Virus record (IMG/VR): IMGVR_UViG_3300028888_000089
Direction: 5' to 3' (one strand)
DNA: 64,000 bases
Origin: an uncultured virus (IMG/VR IMGVR_UViG_3300028888_000089)
Lineage: Duplodnaviria > Heunggongvirae > Uroviricota > Caudoviricetes
In this document: positions 388 through 38,686 of the stretch, in pieces
How positions within the stretch are numbered: the first letter of the stretch is position 1
Layout: every line of letters starts with the position of its first letter
The notes under the pieces: generated by a model
The model's database searches: none
What the model saw: the letters and a program-made list of their open reading frames with translations, nothing else
What the model was told of the DNA's origin: nothing
Program-made: the position numbers and the translations under genes

Positions 388-3186
388 TTAAAGCAATGCT
401 TTTTGCAGAGAAGTCACAGACACATCAAGTGCTTCAGCAACTTCTGCTGTGGTTCTACCCTGTTTAAGCATGTTCCGAGCTCTTGTGATCTTAGCAGGTG
501 ACATTATTGGGCTGGATCTAGGCATAGACAGCTGCTTAATTTGATCCATGTCACTATTGTTTAAGATCTTAGTTAAAGTATTATAAGACACTGCATGCGC
601 TTGAATGGCTTCCCATTCTCTTTCTGAAATATCGACAGGTGTCTTCTTAGCACCTACAGCCTCTCTAGCATCCTTTATGAAGCGGCCACGCATCTTTTTA
701 ATCTCGTCATTATCCGCATCAGGGTTCTCTTGAATATATGTCTTAAGCTTTTGCGCCATTAATAACTGAGCTTTTCTTTCAAGGGGTCTATTAAGCTCTG
801 CTAAATATAGCTTTTTGTTAAGAGAATCCACCTCTAATGCATATGCTTTCTTAGCTGATGGAGAATATGCGTCAGGCTTCGTTAAAAGAGCCATCTTACG
901 AGCTTCGTTTGCCAAATTCTTAAGACGATTGGCAAAATTAGCATAAATTGTTTCTTGTATGGTTCCAGAAGATAAGGTAAATGCGTCATCTGTCTCTGCC
1001 ATCTTTGTAGATGTGATCTTTATCCTCTCTTCTTTACCATGCTTATTGATTCTGGTCCTTCCAGTTTCAATATAAATCTTCTCGCCATTGAAATAACGCT
1101 CTCTTTGCTCAGGCGTCATCTTACTAGGGTTGGTTAATAACTTACGTTCATAAGGATGTGCTTCGCCACTCGCTCTTGACATTAATGTAGACGCACCGCT
1201 TCTAGGACCGCCTTGATAAATAGTCTTTAATTCGGCTATCCCATTATCCTCATAAGACTTACGCCAATCCAAATGATGCTTTTCGGCATCGATAATAACC
1301 ATAGAATGCTTAACGGCTCTTGCGATCTCTTCAGAATCAGCGCCTTTAATGGTCATATCGGTTATTAAATTAGATACAAGGCCCATTTCAAGCTGCTTGT
1401 TAAATCCATGATCCTTGTCAACCTTAGGAGCATCCGGTGGAAGTTGATACATGTCGGGTTCAAAGTTCTTTAATGACTCCATTAATGGTCTAGTCTGTAT
1501 TCTATGGCTATCATTAGGAATAACAAGAACTGAATCTCCGTCAAAATCAGCACCTGAAAGCTTCTGAGCAGCAGATGGATGAATGCCAATAGCATCCATA
1601 GCATCTGTTCCATCAGGTCTCTTTAAAATAGATCGAGCTTTTTCATCTCTATTGTTAACGGTTAACTCTGGAATTTCAAATAGTCCAGAATGAGGATATC
1701 TAATAAGAACAACAGACTCACCATCTCTATAATTTGGAGCATAGCATTCGTTCTCTTTTAACCAAGGCATTGGCAAAATAACCTGAGAACGTTGTCTCGG
1801 CATAGATGCGCCTTTTAAATGAACCGCCGCAGCATCGCAATCGTCAGCGAAACTAGAATATAGCTTCTTTCTAACAGCTGGATTAGTCATTAAGCCTATC
1901 TCGTCGAATGCTTCTTTACGAATATCATATGCTTCTTTCAACTGTGAGCGAATTAATGTAGGCTGTTGTTTTCCTAAAAACTGACTAGAAAGGGTTTTTG
2001 CCCAATCGCCCCAGTTTCCTTCCTCATTAACAATGTTTAATGCTGATAAATGCTCTTTTCCGTCTTCTCCAATATAGTGCCTTTGAGCACGAATAAGCTC
2101 CGTGTCCTTCTTAATAGTAGCGCCAAATGGATTATCTGGATCAGCACTAGCTTTAATAGGCTTTAAAACAGATGTATCCGAAGATTCTCCAAATACAGCT
2201 GTGCCTTTGGGCTTATTGGTATTGAAGATAATATCAACGCCAGGCGGCATTTTGCTTTCGTCTGGGGAATATAGAGCCATTCCTTTTAAATAATGTGTTG
2301 GCTCAGTGGCATTAGGATCCTGTTTTACACCAATTCGTACTTGAGCGTATAATGCATTATGCAAATCCAAATCGGCGACACCTCTTCTAAGCTCGATTGT
2401 GCCGTCTCTTTCTTTTCCGCCCTCTTCGCCATACCTGACTAATACCCTTTTTCCATCAATGGCTATTGGTTTTTCGATCTCTCGTATAGAATATCCATGA
2501 TCTTCTGAATAATAGTTAGGAATAGCAAGATCCGCTCTATGCTGATTTATTTCACTCCTCGGAACATCAGCTTTAGTAAGCACTTTTATTGTTGTCTTAT
2601 ATGGGGTTCCTGCTTGCTGAGTTTTAAATGTCGTAATTTTATATCCTTCATCCTGAAGTAAAATACAAACATTCTTCAATTTTTGTTCGCTTACATTTAA
2701 TCTGAGTTCTGTACCACCACCGACATCAACATATTTCTTTTCTTCAACGGTGTTTTTAAGAACATTCATTAAATCTTCTGTTTGCTTAGCTCTTAAATCG
2801 CTTTTTTCTTTTAATAATGAGCGAACTGAGCTCTCATTTGGCAAACCCATTCTTTTAGCAATGGCCGGATTAGAATATCCTTTTTCTTTAAGCTTCATAG
2901 CCATAGCTGCTCGTTCTCTACGAAGAGTATCTGATGCATAAGATATCTTAGCACGAAGAACAGAAGTAGTCATATCCATGCTTTTGGCTATTTCTTTTTC
3001 AGTTAGGCCTTTGTCCTTTAATTTCTGAACATTAGCCAGAAAATCTTCATGCCTTTGATAAGGATTATCGCCAGAACCCCAAGGATATCTACCAGAATGA
3101 CGAGGAGTGCCATAGTGTTCGAGATAAGCATCGTCTTCTAAATATATCTCATCAAGATAAACCTCATTATGGTCCCATTCTTGCAT
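388..3186 (-). CDS. Single-polypeptide two-barrel (YonO/RdRP-like) DNA-dependent RNA polymerase with HTH domains
   Basis: 932 aa; catalytic LSGADFDGD (cf. NADFDGD of beta-prime); upstream IRYPH (RxP) motif; N- and C-terminal HTH-like segments; N-terminal HYGTPRHSGRYPWGSG motif. Confidence 0.8.
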   Translation of the reverse strand: MQEWDHNEVYLDEIYLEDDAYLEHYGTPRHSGRYPWGSGDNPYQRHEDFLANVQKLKDKGLTEKEIAKSMDMTTSVLRAKISYASDTLRRERAAMAMKLKEKGYSNPAIAKRMGLPNESSVRSLLKEKSDLRAKQTEDLMNVLKNTVEEKKYVDVGGGTELRLNVSEQKLKNVCILLQDEGYKITTFKTQQAGTPYKTTIKVLTKADVPRSEINQHRADLAIPNYYSEDHGYSIREIEKPIAIDGKRVLVRYGEEGGKERDGTIELRRGVADLDLHNALYAQVRIGVKQDPNATEPTHYLKGMALYSPDESKMPPGVDIIFNTNKPKGTAVFGESSDTSVLKPIKASADPDNPFGATIKKDTELIRAQRHYIGEDGKEHLSALNIVNEEGNWGDWAKTLSSQFLGKQQPTLIRSQLKEAYDIRKEAFDEIGLMTNPAVRKKLYSSFADDCDAAAVHLKGASMPRQRSQVILPMPWLKENECYAPNYRDGESVVLIRYPHSGLFEIPELTVNNRDEKARSILKRPDGTDAMDAIGIHPSAAQKLSGADFDGDSVLVIPNDSHRIQTRPLMESLKNFEPDMYQLPPDAPKVDKDHGFNKQLEMGLVSNLITDMTIKGADSEEIARAVKHSMVIIDAEKHHLDWRKSYEDNGIAELKTIYQGGPRSGASTLMSRASGEAHPYERKLLTNPSKMTPEQRERYFNGEKIYIETGRTRINKHGKEERIKITSTKMAETDDAFTLSSGTIQETIYANFANRLKNLANEARKMALLTKPDAYSPSAKKAYALEVDSLNKKLYLAELNRPLERKAQLLMAQKLKTYIQENPDADNDEIKKMRGRFIKDAREAVGAKKTPVDISEREWEAIQAHAVSYNTLTKILNNSDMDQIKQLSMPRSSPIMSPAKITRARNMLKQGRTTAEVAEALDVSVTSLQKALL

Positions 3187-3187
3187 A

Positions 3188-3832
3188 TCAGATTCCCTCC
3201 ATCATATTCTTTGTTAGCACAGAATTTCCATGAACTATCTTTTTCATAGTCGTTTTAATATCTTCTGTTGTTGGATTGCACACTTTTATTTCTTGACTAT
3301 GATAAAGTCTAAGCTCGACCTTCATGGAGTCAGGATGAAAATCCCTTTTGTATTCTAAAAAGAACAAACCGGCATAGCATAATAACTGGTCCATGTGTGC
3401 AGGAGTGACACCAGTTTTTAAATCAAATATCCTAAGCCAATTTCTTCTAACGCCAATAGCGTCTGCCGTGCCAAAACAAAGATCTGAATATTTAAGAACC
3501 ACTTCACTATCCATTTTAAAACCAATGCAGTCGTTTACATATGGCACTAAAATATCAAATATTCGATCCAAGTCTATAACTCTAAACGGAATACCGTTTT
3601 TCATTAAATGGAGTAGCAAACCATTTTTAGCTTCGTCGTTTTCTGAATCAAGGGGTAAGCGATATTTTATTCTATCGCAAGCATACTCATGAACTAGTGT
3701 CCCAATATCCGTAGCAAAACTAGAAGCATATGATTTTAGTAATCCTTCATCATCATAATTAAGCCAATAATGTTTACTCGGGCTTAATATAGCGTGTCGT
3801 CCTTCAAGCTCTGAATGCTTGTTGAAGATCAT
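3188..3832 (-). CDS. PD-(D/E)xK exonuclease-like protein (Cas4/DUF2800-like)
   Basis: LSPS, GTLVH, E...FGTADAI, IFDLKTG and QLLCY motifs. Confidence 0.75.
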   Translation of the reverse strand: MIFNKHSELEGRHAILSPSKHYWLNYDDEGLLKSYASSFATDIGTLVHEYACDRIKYRLPLDSENDEAKNGLLLHLMKNGIPFRVIDLDRIFDILVPYVNDCIGFKMDSEVVLKYSDLCFGTADAIGVRRNWLRIFDLKTGVTPAHMDQLLCYAGLFFLEYKRDFHPDSMKVELRLYHSQEIKVCNPTTEDIKTTMKKIVHGNSVLTKNMMEGI

Positions 3833-4097
3833 TTAAAACTTCCTCCTCATTTTCGGGACAAATAAAAGCAGCAAAAGACATCTGCTTTCCTTTGTCAATG
3901 TAATATTGCTGATTCGGTTGTTTATGAGCTTCGCTTTCTATTTTGCATTCTAATAAGGCCCATTTGTTTTTCCATAAAACTGTCAAATCTGGAATTCCCT
4001 GAATGTAATTAGGATCATTTTTCATAACTATGCATCCAGGGAACATAGCCATAAGCTTTTTTTTAAGTTTAGCTTGGTACTGACTTTCTTTAGTCAA
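3804..4097 (-). CDS. VRR-NUC domain nuclease / Holliday junction resolvase
   Basis: KESQYQ, GIPDL, LECK and QPNQ motifs; start reassigned to TTG at 4097 because the longer ORF overlaps a terminator and an ncRNA. Confidence 0.75.
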   Translation of the reverse strand: MTKESQYQAKLKKKLMAMFPGCIVMKNDPNYIQGIPDLTVLWKNKWALLECKIESEAHKQPNQQYYIDKGKQMSFAAFICPENEEEVLNDLQQAFRA

Positions 4098-4116
4098 TGG
4101 AAAAACATCCTTTCTA

Positions 4117-4148
4117 AGAAAAAAATAACAAACCATGTTCGGTTTGTT
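4117..4148 (-). terminator. Intrinsic terminator after the orphan Y-like RNA
   Basis: AACAAACC/GGTTTGTT hairpin followed by a U-tract on the minus strand. Confidence 0.65.
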
Positions 4149-4152
4149 AAAG

Positions 4153-4225
4153 AAGCAGACAAAAAGCGAGAACGGTACAATGTCAAATCCCAAATTCGAA
4201 GTAACCGTTCCCTGCAGTTCTGCTT
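4153..4225 (-). ncRNA. Orphan Y-RNA-like hairpin RNA carrying a tRNA-Pro(UGG) anticodon stem-loop
   Basis: 63/73 identical to the unit at 38446-38518, with compensatory changes; UACUUC motif; UCGAA-UUUGGGA-UUUGA. Confidence 0.75.
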
Positions 4226-4269
4226 GGAGAATTGAAAAATATCAAAGAATGCTAAAAGCACTCTCTCTC

Positions 4270-4316: not shown

Positions 4317-5525
4317 TCAATAAAGACTTTTTAAGAAAGCGCTCTCATTAAAGCTCTTTTTGTTTCGTAGTGCTCTAGCGATTGCCAAATCTATTTTACT
4401 CATACTAACGATGTGGTAATAATATAAATCGACGAATGGCGTATTTAGTCTATCTATTCTACCAGCTGCCTGAACCATTGCTTTGTAGCTATAACTTTGA
4501 GAATAGAAAATAATGGTGTCAGTCGTAATGCAATTCCATCCTTCTGCTCCTGCTGAATACTGAACAAGATAGGCCCAAGTATCTCCTGTCGGAAGCGGTT
4601 CATGTTTGTGTCCATTCCATTCGGCAGTAGGAATATCCAATGTCCTCAAAATATCAAGTTCGTAGTCATAATTGTAAAAGATTATGGCTTTCGGGTGAGC
4701 TTTCATCACCTCCTTGATTTTTTGAAGCCTGGATGGATCACTTCCAACGATCCTTCGTAGCGTTTGGCATAACTCACTGGATTCCATTATTGGTTGATCT
4801 TTAAAAAAGTTCCATCTAGTTTTCATAGTTGCGTCATAAATATCCTTATCGAATCCTACAACTACTTTTTCATGATGAGGGATGGTATCTCTATGAAAAT
4901 CCATAGTCACCAATATGCTACTTCTCAGGCGATTAAGATGCTTTTCTTCTACAAAACGGCTAACTTGAGGATACTTTGCAAATCTGTTGTATACGACATG
5001 GCGACGACAAAATTCAGTTTTGTTTTTATAAAATCCATTAGCTATAAAAACAGGAATGTAGTCCATCCATGTGTCGCCTGGTGTTGCACTTAGTAAAATC
5101 CATTTATTGTTTTTTGTAATTTTTAAAAAGTTTTTAACCCAAGTGCCATATCCAACAACTCTTTGCTCGTCAAATAGAAAAAAGCAATCTTTTACCGATA
5201 TATATTTGCCTATATTATTCCAGCTATCGATTGTAACACAAACTCCACCTATACTGCATTCACGATTTGTACTTAAGCCAAACTTCATGCATTCATGTTC
5301 CCATTCAAAGGTGTCTCTCTTTCTAGCCGTAGTTATTATGAAAATATCAATGGGCTTTCTTGGGAACTCTCTTGTCATATAATAAGCTATGCCAGTTATA
5401 CTTTTACCGCTACCAACACCACCACATAGGATGGAGCCGGTGTGTAGCTTTTCAAGCGCCTGCTTTTGGTGCTCAAATAATTCTACTTGCATTCTTTCAG
5501 ACTCCATCCTATGTTGAAATATCAA
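4317..5525 (-). CDS. SF2 (DEAD/SNF2-like) DNA helicase
   Basis: GVGSGKS Walker A, FDEQ, LSATPG, AGAEGWN and QAAGRIDR motifs; true start may be a downstream ATG. Confidence 0.9.
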   Translation of the reverse strand: MIFQHRMESERMQVELFEHQKQALEKLHTGSILCGGVGSGKSITGIAYYMTREFPRKPIDIFIITTARKRDTFEWEHECMKFGLSTNRECSIGGVCVTIDSWNNIGKYISVKDCFFLFDEQRVVGYGTWVKNFLKITKNNKWILLSATPGDTWMDYIPVFIANGFYKNKTEFCRRHVVYNRFAKYPQVSRFVEEKHLNRLRSSILVTMDFHRDTIPHHEKVVVGFDKDIYDATMKTRWNFFKDQPIMESSELCQTLRRIVGSDPSRLQKIKEVMKAHPKAIIFYNYDYELDILRTLDIPTAEWNGHKHEPLPTGDTWAYLVQYSAGAEGWNCITTDTIIFYSQSYSYKAMVQAAGRIDRLNTPFVDLYYYHIVSMSKIDLAIARALRNKKSFNESAFLKSLY

Positions 5526-37681: not shown

Positions 37682-37722
37682 AACAGTTCTCCTTTCTTAT
37701 TGAGACAAAGTAATGTTTCCAT

Positions 37723-37855
37723 AAGCCGACAAAAGCATACGCAGTATTCTAGGAAGGTTTTCGCTCTACCACTTGAGCTATTTAGCTTTTGCTAAAATAG
37801 GATTTGAACCTATGACATAAAATGATCGAAGTAACTGCATATTACAGTTCGGCTT
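37723..37855 (-). ncRNA. YrlA-like Y RNA 1 (permuted tRNA-like domain)
   Basis: AAGCCGA/TCGGCTT closing stem; UACUUC; T-arm, then closed acceptor hairpin, then D-arm TAGCTCAAGTGGTAGAGC. Confidence 0.8.
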
Positions 37856-37867
37856 GGAAACAAAATA

Positions 37868-37984
37868 TAATAAACCGATAAAAGCGAAAATGGAGTTTAC
37901 ACTTGTGCAACCAATAGCACCATACGAGAATGTCGTAAGTAGGATTCGAACCGAAGTATCCATTTTCTACAATACGGTTTATTA
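37868..37984 (-). ncRNA. YrlA-like Y RNA 2
   Basis: 10-bp closing stem, UACUUC, GGTTCGAATCC, D-arm-like hairpin. Confidence 0.75.
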
Positions 37985-37995
37985 CCGGAATATAT

Positions 37996-38141
37996 AATTA
38001 AGCCGATAAAATCAAAAACAGTATTTTTCGTGCTCTGTCCAGCTGAGCTATCAGAAACTGTTACCAGATCCTGAATAGGATTCGAACCTATGACCACGTC
38101 GTTAACAGCGAAGTAACTGTTTTTTACAATACGGCTTAATT
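37996..38141 (-). ncRNA. YrlA-like Y RNA 3 with Asn(GUU) anticodon loop
   Basis: Closing stem; UCG-CUGUUAA-CGA; T-arm, acceptor hairpin, D-arm TAGCTCAGCTGGACAGAGC. Confidence 0.8.
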
Positions 38142-38151
38142 TCTTAAGAAA

Positions 38152-38248
38152 AGGGCAGACAAAATCAATAGCAGATAACAGTTAGGAAACCTGGGTTGGA
38201 GGTTTGTACTTATTAAATCGAAGTAGCTGCTATTTACAGTTCTGCCCT
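38152..38248 (-). ncRNA. Short Y-like RNA 4
   Basis: AGGGCAGA/TCTGCCCT and AATAGCAG/CTGCTATT stems; UACUUC. Confidence 0.75.
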
Positions 38249-38343
38249 GAAGAGGGGTGTGACAGTCTAATGTCCGTATATAGACCGTCAAAAGGAGGTG
38301 TTTGGCGAGAGAAGCGCATCTTCTCGCCAATGAATGGGAAATA

Positions 38344-38437
38344 TAATAAATGGATAAAAACGATAATGGTGAGATTAATAGAGTTGCAGTCTATTTTATA
38401 TAATCGAAGTAACCATTATCTACAATGCCATTTATTA
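38344..38437 (-). ncRNA. Short Y-like RNA 5 with Cys(GCA) anticodon stem-loop
   Basis: Same scaffold; AAUAGA-CUGCAAC-UCUAUU. Confidence 0.75.
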
Positions 38438-38445
38438 CCAAATAA

Positions 38446-38518
38446 AAGCCGACAAAAAGCGAAAACGGAACAATATCAAATCCCGAATTCGAAGTAACTG
38501 TTTTCTACAGTTCGGCTT
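38446..38518 (-). ncRNA. Short Y-like RNA 6 with Pro(CGG) anticodon stem-loop
   Basis: Same scaffold; UCGAA-UUCGGGA-UUUGA. Confidence 0.78.
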
Positions 38519-38525
38519 AATGGAA

Positions 38526-38601
38526 TGACGGACAAAAGCGAGAACGGGTAACATAAAGTCAAATTAGCAGTTCGAAGTATCCGTTCTCTACAGTTCCGTC
38601 A
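38526..38601 (-). ncRNA. Short Y-like RNA 7 with Ser(GCU) anticodon stem-loop
   Basis: Same scaffold; UCGAA-CUGCUAA-UUUGA; begins 2 nt after tRNA-Leu. Confidence 0.78.
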
Positions 38602-38603
38602 AG

Positions 38604-38686
38604 TGCGCTTAGTGGGACTCGAACCCACACGTCTATACAGACAAGGGATTTTAAGTCCCTGGCGTCTGCCATTCCGCCATAAGCGC
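38604..38686 (-). tRNA. tRNA-Leu(UAA)
   Basis: Full cloverleaf; AGGGA-CUUAAAA-UCCCU; long variable arm; GGTTCGAGTCC. Confidence 0.93.

Follow-up and report, generated by a model that had tools for sequence, protein, structure and literature searches.

Anticodon-arm mimicry in YrlA-type Y RNAs encoded beside a phage Ro60 gene

Bacterial Y RNAs of the YrlA type are described as having near the 5' end a CGAA-type motif, presumed to contact Ro60, together with a conserved YUAY sequence, T and D arms and a closed acceptor hairpin, and their genes as lying no more than 4 kb from the Ro60 gene, rsr, on the same strand (PMC4201824). The hairpin that precedes the T arm and begins with YUAY was named V by Chen et al. 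in 2014 and equated with the variable arm of tRNA (PMC4201824). In the reported structure of the S. Typhimurium YrlA there is no anticodon loop, and the helix on the handle side is taken as the anticodon stem (10.1101/312249). The published picture is of a tRNA-like domain without an anticodon loop. The origin of YrlA from a tRNA dimer has also been proposed (10.1101/312249), a model that predicts an anticodon arm, variable loop, T arm, spacer and D arm, which is the order we observe. The YrlA and YrlB of M. smegmatis resemble the RNAs studied here in the 7-bp acceptor stem and in that several Y RNAs come from one precursor upstream of rsr; they differ in that RNase P cutting and CCA addition were shown there, and in that no anticodon arm is described in the portions of the paper considered here (PMC4201824). 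For D. radiodurans Yrn1 a possible 'anticodon arm' with a 5-bp stem was modelled by the authors, but its loop has 6 nt, its T and D arms are oriented differently and the RNA tethers PNPase (PMC4201824). The Thermus phage phiLo encodes the Y-like RNAs Yrl1 and Yrl2, with a CGAA motif, upstream of its Ro60 gene; a role of this Ro60 against host defence through PNPase hijacking has been proposed, and the portions of the paper considered here make no mention of a tRNA-like or anticodon-like module (PMC12135203). None of the papers covered by a full-text literature search describes an anticodon arm in Y RNAs or Y RNAs as anticodon baits.

The window analysed here is the whole 64,000-nt stretch of DNA recovered from an uncultured virus. 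It is phage DNA with all genes on the minus strand, and its ORFs include a DNA polymerase-primase, a helicase, a tail fibre and an endolysin; neither an RNA ligase nor RtcB was found among the 65 ORFs scanned. Between a tRNA-Leu(UAA) gene and an rsr gene lie seven Y-RNA-like units on the minus strand, here called A to G (Table 1). On the strand of rsr, this array takes up the region from 41 to 921 nt upstream of the gene, within the 4 kb of a TROVE gene that characterises YrlA, and an eighth, orphan unit lies 33 kb away from the array and outside that distance. In native order ARAGORN reports only the tRNAs Gln, Leu and Ile in the whole window. In a blastn comparison of the array with named phages the tRNA-Leu was the sole match, and a virus record 95% alike has the same two YrlA matches as the window.

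Table 1. Features of the Ro60 locus and of the orphan unit, in window coordinates
Feature	Position	Strand	Evidence and remarks
rsr, Ro60 orthologue, 486 aa	36221..37681	-	Pfam TROVE 1.2e-33, vWA_Ro60 4.8e-10; PHROG 850
Unit G, classical YrlA type	37722..37856	-	R1 81.5 bits; Rfam YrlA 45.1 bits, E 3.3e-8
Unit F, Y-like	37871..37981	-	R1 67.7 bits; T-loop-like GGUUCGAAUCC, without clear cloverleaf
Unit E, permuted whole cloverleaf	37999..38138	-	R1 74.7 bits; Rfam YrlA 33.3 bits, E 8e-5
Unit E T arm	38091-75	-	followed by closed acceptor hairpin and D arm
Unit E variable loop UGGUC, 5 nt	38096-92	-	
Unit E anticodon arm, loop CUGUUAA, anticodon GUU	38113-97	-	sequence
Unit D, Y-like	38152..38248	-	R1 75.1 bits
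C/D spacer	38249..38346	-	strong hairpin UUGGCGAGAAG...CUUCUCUCGCCAA
Unit C, Y-like	38347..38434	-	R1 80.1 bits
Unit C distal anticodon-like hairpin, AUAGA-CUGCAAC-UCUAU, anticodon GCA	38394-38378	-	lowest-energy fold
Unit B, short Y-like	38445..38519	-	R1 72.2 bits
Unit B anticodon-arm mimic, UCGAA-UUCGGGA-UUUGA, anticodon CGG, G37	38492-38476	-	sequence
Unit A, short Y-like	38525..38602	-	R1 covariance model 76 bits
Unit A anticodon-arm mimic, UCGAA-CUGCUAA-UUUGA, anticodon GCU	38575-38559	-	sequence; formed in lowest-energy fold
tRNA-Leu(UAA)	38603..38686	-	ARAGORN; Rfam tRNA 58.2 bits; directly 5' of unit A (coding strand)
Orphan unit, short Y-like	4152..4226	-	R1 69.5 bits
Orphan anticodon-arm mimic, UCGAA-UUUGGGA-UUUGA, anticodon UGG, G37	4199-4183	-	sequence

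The eight units align on a common frame of helix 1, internal loop, helix 2, N-UAC-UUCG, a variable middle and the return strands. The internal loop of this handle has A-Y-U-G-Y-A-R facing Y-G-M-U-U-U-U, and YUAY is present in 8/8 units as UUAC, AUAC or CUAC. Near the 5' end, units B, G and E come close to GNCGAAN0-1G without matching it exactly, having GCCGAA or GCCGUA followed by two letters and G; the same region reads ACGGAA in unit A and GCAGAA in the orphan. A covariance model of the two handle helices alone, termed R1, finds exactly these eight units in the window. The Rfam YrlA model (RF02553), which was built from other lineages and has no anticodon arm, matches only G and E, both below its gathering score of 69. 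The units are YrlA-type Y RNAs beside a Ro60 gene, and an earlier note on this DNA was right to call them Y-like.

Units E and G have T and D arms with the core bases of tRNA and, between these arms, a closed acceptor hairpin. These elements are absent from units A to D and from the orphan, which look like the short Y RNAs of the YrlB type; unit G has no anticodon arm. The earlier note had named five loops in these RNAs as matching real anticodon loops. All five are found when the minus strand is read: CUGUUAA at 38108-38102, CUGCAAC at 38389-38383, UUCGGGA at 38487-38481, CUGCUAA at 38570-38564 and UUUGGGA at 4194-4188. Four of them have 7-nt loops on stems of 5-6 bp, and units A, B, C and the orphan follow the rule of a 5-bp stem, a 7-nt loop, U33 and R37. 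The fifth, in unit E, has a weaker stem of three contiguous pairs (UCG/CGA) and one more beyond a mismatch, and it follows the position rule, standing 5 nt before the T stem; its status as an anticodon arm derives from homologues such as UUCGG-CUGUUAA-CCGAG and from the variable loop and T arm 3' of the hairpin. As that note had also observed, the stem UCGAA/UUUGA (5 bp including one G-U) is common to A, B and the orphan, and the two Pro-type loops, both with G37, differ only at position 34. Since A, B and the orphan are paralogues of one another, the window provides about four independent cases.

The remaining hairpins are less uniform. That of unit C lies further from the handle than the arms of A, B and the orphan, and GCA loops like its own recur in three clusters of relatives. 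The hairpin AAACCU-CCAACCC-AGGUUU of unit D (38205-38187) has C33 and is not anticodon-like, and the hairpin of unit F, CAUU-CUCGUAU-GGUG, is weak. In ViennaRNA lowest-energy folds the 7-nt loop is formed in units A and C; the Pro-type loop of the orphan is closed to a 3-nt loop and unit B is misfolded. When a hairpin of at least 4 bp with a 7-nt loop and Y32-U33...R37 is required, 5/8 window units pass (four solid and F weak, with E uncounted), while none of 2000 dinucleotide shuffles has more than three passing units.

Relatives of this Rsr number in the thousands at 60-73% identity, on contigs of up to ~130 kb, and named phages reach at most 34%. A single Rsr protein query found no relatives in viral contigs, and those there were gathered with an alignment of 28 Rsr relatives. 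We took 14 viral and 80 metagenome loci and excluded five repeats of viral contigs (L031, L034, L047, L050 and L083). In these loci R1 finds 259 units (216 distinct). They stand beside rsr in arrays that reach eight units and mostly have two to six, and TACTTC is present in 198 of the 216. In an alignment fitted to the model (A3; 113 distinct rows from 132 of the 259 model matches), pairing holds in 91.4% of the cells of the handle helices, and each of the 15 pairs has changed on both sides.

Within the window's clade a 7-nt loop is the commonest hairpin right after UACUUCG, being found in 51 of the 214 distinct units with a defined middle, or 41 of 175 clusters; the next loop size is 3 nt (23 units), and 60 of the 214 have no proximal hairpin. 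Among the 51 loops C32 occurs in 38, U33 in 41, A37 in 42 and A38 in 39, and positions 34-36 vary. Strict CU...AA hairpins were observed 40 times; the figure for dinucleotide shuffles is 1.46 +/- 1.39 (maximum 8 of 100). Hairpins were enumerated at the conserved site because the arm is under-counted when units are classed by whichever hairpin comes first in the lowest-energy fold (41 non-T 7-nt loops). We also took units with a T arm at 22-27 nt spacing, 71 of them distinct and none selected for the arm. In these the canonical-register arm is paired in 57% of cells, so that about half of these units have the arm and the rest are variants, and the pair 31:39 covaries (CG 15, AU 11, UA 6, GC 3).

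The loops were also collected with a pattern that leaves their sequence free, TACTTCG-N-[7 free letters]-N-CGAG-N-GGTC, in viral contigs and species genomes, and the matches were sorted by a criterion outside the loop, namely whether a T arm directly follows. Among the matches listed, the 93 viral copies with a T arm have a Watson-Crick pair 31:39 in 93 (AU 36, CG 29, UA 21, GC 7), U33 in 90, R37 in 91 and A38 in 87. The 37 cellular-genome copies with a T arm among those listed have the pair in 37, U33 in 35, R37 in 34 and A38 in 29, and the 85 listed genome matches without a T arm, attributed to chance, have them in 23, 12, 43 and 15. Raw pattern matches in cellular genomes cannot be taken as true copies, since 85 of the 122 listed have no T arm and are mostly chance; these served as an internal control only, and the true element accounts for 37 of the 122. 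Positions 36 and 37 follow a rule in the viral matches listed: U36 goes with A37 in 71/71, G36 with G37 in 13/14 and C36 with A37 in 5/5. The concern, raised in the earlier note itself, that loops in homologues might be random with respect to U33 and R37 is not borne out, as both the clade counts and the free-loop scan give loops that follow anticodon-arm rules.

The triplet itself is free. At least 26 different anticodons occur among the 93 viral copies listed; the commonest there are GUU, UGU, GCU and UCU, and in the clade UUU, GUU, UGU and GCU. Anticodons beginning with A, which are rare in real bacterial tRNAs, make up about 8% of the viral matches listed (AUG, AUU, AAU, AUC, AGG). In the copies compared, the stem UUCGN/NCGAG is nearly invariant across anticodons and across phages of unrelated hosts, so the arms are not copies of particular host tRNAs. 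In 12 pairs of close relatives the differing positions are 10/36 in the anticodon, 2/48 in the loop flanks and 142/1504 elsewhere (Fisher p 0.0017, the 12 pairs not being independent); one such pair has anticodon UUU versus GUU with a compensating 31:39 change. G36-G37 is the context of m1G37, and 84 of the 93 viral loops among the matches listed are of the U36-A37 or G36-G37 type. UAA at 36-38 is reported as a strict t6A determinant (PMC13276492), and two readings fit the 84/93 pattern: the mimicry is faithful and depends on modification, or the partner is itself a modification enzyme. Taken together, the loop counts show in many Ro60-linked Y RNAs an anticodon arm that keeps to the tRNA rules while its triplet is free and quick to change.

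The copies found in the scan are, by their sequence, Y-RNA-like and not tandem tRNAs. A TROVE gene lies within ~1.5 kb in 10/10 viral contigs of the scan, sampled in list order. The matches listed include 107 viral and 37 genomic copies; a partner for handle helix 2 was found in 94 and 34 of these, and a downstream 7-mer that pairs with the 3' strand of the acceptor in 92 and 36, respectively. ARAGORN makes calls on 41 of the 144 loci listed, and we considered whether these are real tRNAs; only two copies have a true tRNA topology. The sequence UUCGA-CUGUUAA-UCGAG-AGGUC stands next to the Ro60 gene of a cultured phage, Xanthomonas phage Usaquen, and YrlA matches in Gordonia, Streptomyces and Rhizobium phages have no anticodon arm.

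In the usual long unit, the 5' strand of the handle is followed by UAC, the arm UUCGN-CUNNNAA-NCGAG, AGGUC and the T arm, then a 7-bp acceptor hairpin, UA, the D arm (GCUCAGUUGGUAGAGC), GCUAA... and the 3' strand of the handle. A 17-nt arm, a 5-nt loop of the AGGUC type and a T stem are arranged as positions 27-48 are in tRNA. Of the 214 clade units, 75 have T and D arms on either side of a closed acceptor hairpin, and the acceptor in these 75 is of 7 bp. When their parts were re-ordered by script, ARAGORN called 48/75 as tRNAs, against 1/75 in native order; re-ordered unit E was called as tRNA-Asn(gtt), and the Rfam tRNA model scores unit E at 19.8 bits, below cut-off. RNAalifold predicts handle helix 2, the arm of 5 bp and 7 nt and the T, acceptor and D helices in 31 copies selected by motif. 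An encoded CCA end was considered and rejected, as NCCA follows the acceptor strand in only 11/75. Each long unit of this kind is thus an entire cloverleaf with its permutation at 26/27, and a short unit consists of the Ro60 handle and the anticodon arm that it bears.

These RNAs agree with the published YrlA in the same-strand rsr neighbour, the handle, the YUAY sequence, the tRNA core bases of the T and D arms, the closed acceptor hairpin and the several copies per locus, and their 5' motif comes near to the CGAA type without matching it exactly (RF02553; PMC4201824, 10.1101/312249). Whereas the published V is described as less conserved (PMC4201824), that of the window's family has 5 bp, a 7-nt loop, U33, R37 and A38 and many anticodons, and a 5-nt variable loop follows it; the window also differs in having short units of handle and arm alone and eight units in one genome. 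The hairpin named V in the YrlA literature is really the anticodon arm, and mimicry of anticodon arms is, in our judgement, well supported. The earlier note had treated the hairpin as an extra on a D/T/acceptor mimic; its likeness to an anticodon arm stands, while the view of it as an add-on does not, the long units being complete cloverleaves permuted at 26/27. Similarly, the term 'library' used in that note suits the window better than the family, because the element is spread over many phages and cellular genomes, usually with one or two arms per array. In the permuted tRNA genes of red algae the 3' half precedes the 5' half, the transcript ends form a helix and the halves are re-joined to real tRNAs by splicing machinery. 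The phage units are alike in order and end helix, which in them is the putative Ro60 site, and to our knowledge no such re-joining machinery exists in bacteria.

What these arms are for is a matter of weighing. We propose that the Y RNAs of the array serve as ligands for the Ro60 (Rsr) that the phage itself encodes, each unit consisting of a handle (two helices, the conserved internal loop and N-UAC-UUCG) and a variable effector module. In unit E this module would be the whole cloverleaf, with a loop closing the acceptor end and with the opening for the two ends placed between D arm and anticodon arm. For A, B and the orphan it would be a bare anticodon stem-loop stacked on the handle, with unit C holding one more distally. 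Ro60 may hold and protect these RNAs, so that their anticodon loops are offered as baits to loop-reading proteins. The best candidates for such proteins are the anticodon nucleases with which hosts defend themselves against phages; the baits would titrate or block them. Both the binding by Ro60 and the modification of the loops are things we infer. Baits or decoys of this kind, held by Ro60, are to us the most likely function and a plausible one, with a probability of about 0.4.

Both the fast switching of anticodons and their spectrum favour decoys, as do the short units, which keep the anticodon arm alone, and the cover of parts of the array by RNA-library contigs. PARIS AriB is reported to cut tRNA-Lys(UUU), Thr(UGU) and Asn(GUU) (PMC12409363) and P2 OLD to cut Thr(UGU) (PMC12445682), and the commonest anticodons include all three targets of AriB and that of OLD. 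Phage tRNAs that escape anticodon nucleases offer a parallel, being phage RNAs with the anticodon arms of targeted tRNAs, chiefly Lys, Thr and Asn, as in the T5 tRNAs against PARIS (PMC12409363) and phage tRNA-Thr against P2 OLD (PMC12445682; see also PMC10264068). Those tRNAs are functional and replace the cut host tRNAs, whereas the Y-like units cannot be ordinary tRNAs and would be baits. Decoys are weakened by the invariant stem, as AriB and OLD are reported to read stem positions of the tRNA (PMC12409363; PMC12445682), and by the copies in cellular genomes, on account of which the element is not a phage-only counter-defence. Most clade units, moreover, lack the proximal 7-nt hairpin (only 51/214 have one), and a stoichiometric decoy would have to compete with abundant tRNAs. 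The anticodons that begin with A, the pairing of the canonical-register arm in only 57% of cells and, more weakly, the deep RNA-library contig over C, spacer and D also speak against decoys.

A broader version, which we think rather unlikely, would have the Ro60-YrlA particles of phages and cells stand guard, in a programmable way, against attacks directed at anticodons. Their Y RNA would show a faithful, probably modified anticodon arm as a tripwire or bait, and a nuclease that binds or cuts it would be trapped; alternatively, the cut Y RNA may free the gate of the Ro60 ring and so switch on tRNA rescue or decay. The anticodon triplet would then be a fast-evolving specificity element. If true, this would explain why bacterial Y RNAs have a tRNA-like domain, a question open since 2014.

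Some of the same observations can be read in other ways. It is possible, if on balance doubtful, that the tRNA-like module acts as has been proposed for YrlA in general and brings a tRNA-binding protein of the host to Ro60, and through it perhaps to PNPase, with the anticodon picking the partner, which could be an anticodon reader such as an aminoacyl-tRNA synthetase or a position-37 enzyme (the t6A or m1G37 machinery). Y RNAs are reported to link Ro60 to PNPase, and the effector of YrlA is thought to be a tRNA-binding protein (PMC4201824; 10.1101/312249); the Thermus phage Ro60 and its Y-like RNAs are likewise reported to bind the host PNPase (PMC12135203). The preponderance of U36-A37 and G36-G37 loops, with UAA as t6A determinant, would agree with such a partner, and the occurrence in cellular genomes would suit a housekeeping one. 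With a fixed housekeeping partner, however, the fast switching of anticodons in close relatives is unexpected, and most enzymes that act on tRNA require a D/T elbow, which is missing from the short units. Quite unlikely, in our view, is that the arm is a remnant, the anticodon arm of the first tRNA of a dimer having survived in YrlA as a stable helix whose loop sequence has no role. The dimer model predicts exactly this order of elements (10.1101/312249), and the arm is lost or altered in many units, but U33, R37, A38 and the 36-37 rule are kept in at least 90% of the copies listed, in distant phages and cellular genomes, while 34-36 vary. That the stem is the same across anticodons, which makes the units paralogues altered only in the triplet, and that the short units lost the rest and kept the arm also argue against a remnant.

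The resemblance of the long units to re-ordered tRNAs could be taken more literally, as permuted or split tRNA genes whose product, cut by RNase P at the acceptor hairpin and given CCA, would be a two-piece tRNA that is held by the handle, charged and used in translation. The YrlA of M. smegmatis, with its 7-bp acceptor stem, is reported to be cut by RNase P and to gain CCA in vivo (PMC4201824), and here 75 units have a 7-bp acceptor and 48 of these are called as tRNAs after re-permutation. This use is nevertheless very improbable given how seldom NCCA is present (11/75), the short units without acceptor or elbow and the anticodons that begin with A; a handle of ~20 bp with Ro60 at 26/27 would also be unlikely to fit the ribosome. 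Regulators that act by kissing, their U-turn loops pairing with complementary loops or short sites in other RNAs, would fit the use that antisense RNAs make of seven-nt U-turn loops for fast pairing. Only three bases vary, though, and the 36-37 rule and A38 would be useless for pairing, so that we hold this to be highly improbable.

Returning to Ro60-held decoys, we consider them a good hypothesis, the mimicry of anticodon arms strongly supported and the observation itself real and general. A rule-abiding anticodon arm narrows the search for partners to proteins that read anticodon loops, and the finding links Ro60 to phage defences that target tRNAs. For annotation it means that such units are missed by tRNA finders and fall below the Rfam YrlA threshold.

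Parts of the array are present in four RNA-library runs, in which DNA carry-over is possible. The contig 38152-38409 has a depth of 199 (X2) and 38153-38425 a depth of 40 (X6), with flanks at 2-12, strand and levels not being given; uncovered parts (units A and B and most of rsr) are not readable as silence. The deepest contig spans unit D, the C/D spacer and most of C and not the short anticodon-arm units, which, coming from contigs only, is a weak indication. Although contig ends may not be RNA ends, in two studies there are contigs that end at 38152-38154, where the 3' end of unit D is predicted.

At the viral and genome loci (about L110-L349) recovered by a pattern scan in which all seven loop letters were left free, the loops are strongly skewed to U36-A37-A38 and G36-G37 (tRNA numbering), a composition that differs from the normal tRNA set. 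Among the matches listed, 71 of the 93 viral copies with a T arm directly after the anticodon-arm-like hairpin have a U36-A37-A38 loop and 13/93 a G36-G37 loop, while A36 (3/93) and C36 (5/93) are rare. Individual arms also vary between orthologous units: L024:2239-2380 has an 8-nt loop (CUUUGUAA), whereas its counterpart L027:2238-2378 has a 7-nt loop (CUUGAAA), and another pair, of short units, has GUA in one and UUU in the other. The stop-codon-reading triplets UUA and UCA occur in some arms (L008:5604-5677, L036:1972-2061, L009:30-158 and L073:2252-2376); stop-codon reassignment is known in this phage group (PMC10136315).

Y-like RNAs were also found beside the Ro60/TROVE genes of named phages. 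The unannotated gap that follows the TROVE gene gp96 of Bacteroides phage crAss001 contains, beside a short Y-like unit and a weaker Y-like match, two tRNA-like RNAs of un-permuted, normal order with open acceptor ends, in both of which the anticodon arm is replaced by a hairpin ending in GUUACUUC. ARAGORN, run on this gap, found none of the Y-like or tRNA-like RNAs. In the cultured, 43 kb Xanthomonas phage Usaquen two Y RNAs lie upstream of the Ro60 gene, which is unannotated; one is of the classical type, and the other carries the anticodon arm known from the clade of the window (UUCGA-CUGUUAA-UCGAG-AGGUC).

Y-like and tRNA-like RNAs near the Ro60/TROVE genes of two phages (R1, covariance model of the two handle helices of Y-like units)
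Feature	Locus	Position	Details
crAss001 gap after gp96	L100, MH675552.1	4375-5280	
Short Y-like unit	L100	4471-4554	R1 29 bits
First tRNA-like RNA	L100	4648-4791	Rfam tRNA 46.6 bits with 82-nt insert
Second tRNA-like RNA	L100	about 4904-5043	
Weaker Y-like match	L100	5044-5189	
Usaquen Y RNAs	L103, MW822536.1	2301-2409 and 1825-1920	one classical, the other with anticodon arm

Within the window, the orphan Y-like unit sits in the gap separating the helicase and endonuclease genes. The TTG start of the ORF listed at 3804-4193 (minus strand) falls inside this unit; the actual start codon probably lies downstream of that TTG. The 932-aa protein at 388-3186 (minus strand) matches PHROG 4291 with a score of 1120 bits; the annotation of this PHROG is 'RNA-dependent RNA polymerase'. 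The two ends of the protein give helix-turn-helix and sigma region 4 matches. In the RNA libraries, the contig that covers unit D together with the C-D spacer and the greater part of unit C (38152-38425) is the deepest, at 4-20x or more its neighbours (199 vs 2-12; 40 vs 2-5). This spacer (38249-38346) contains a strong hairpin.
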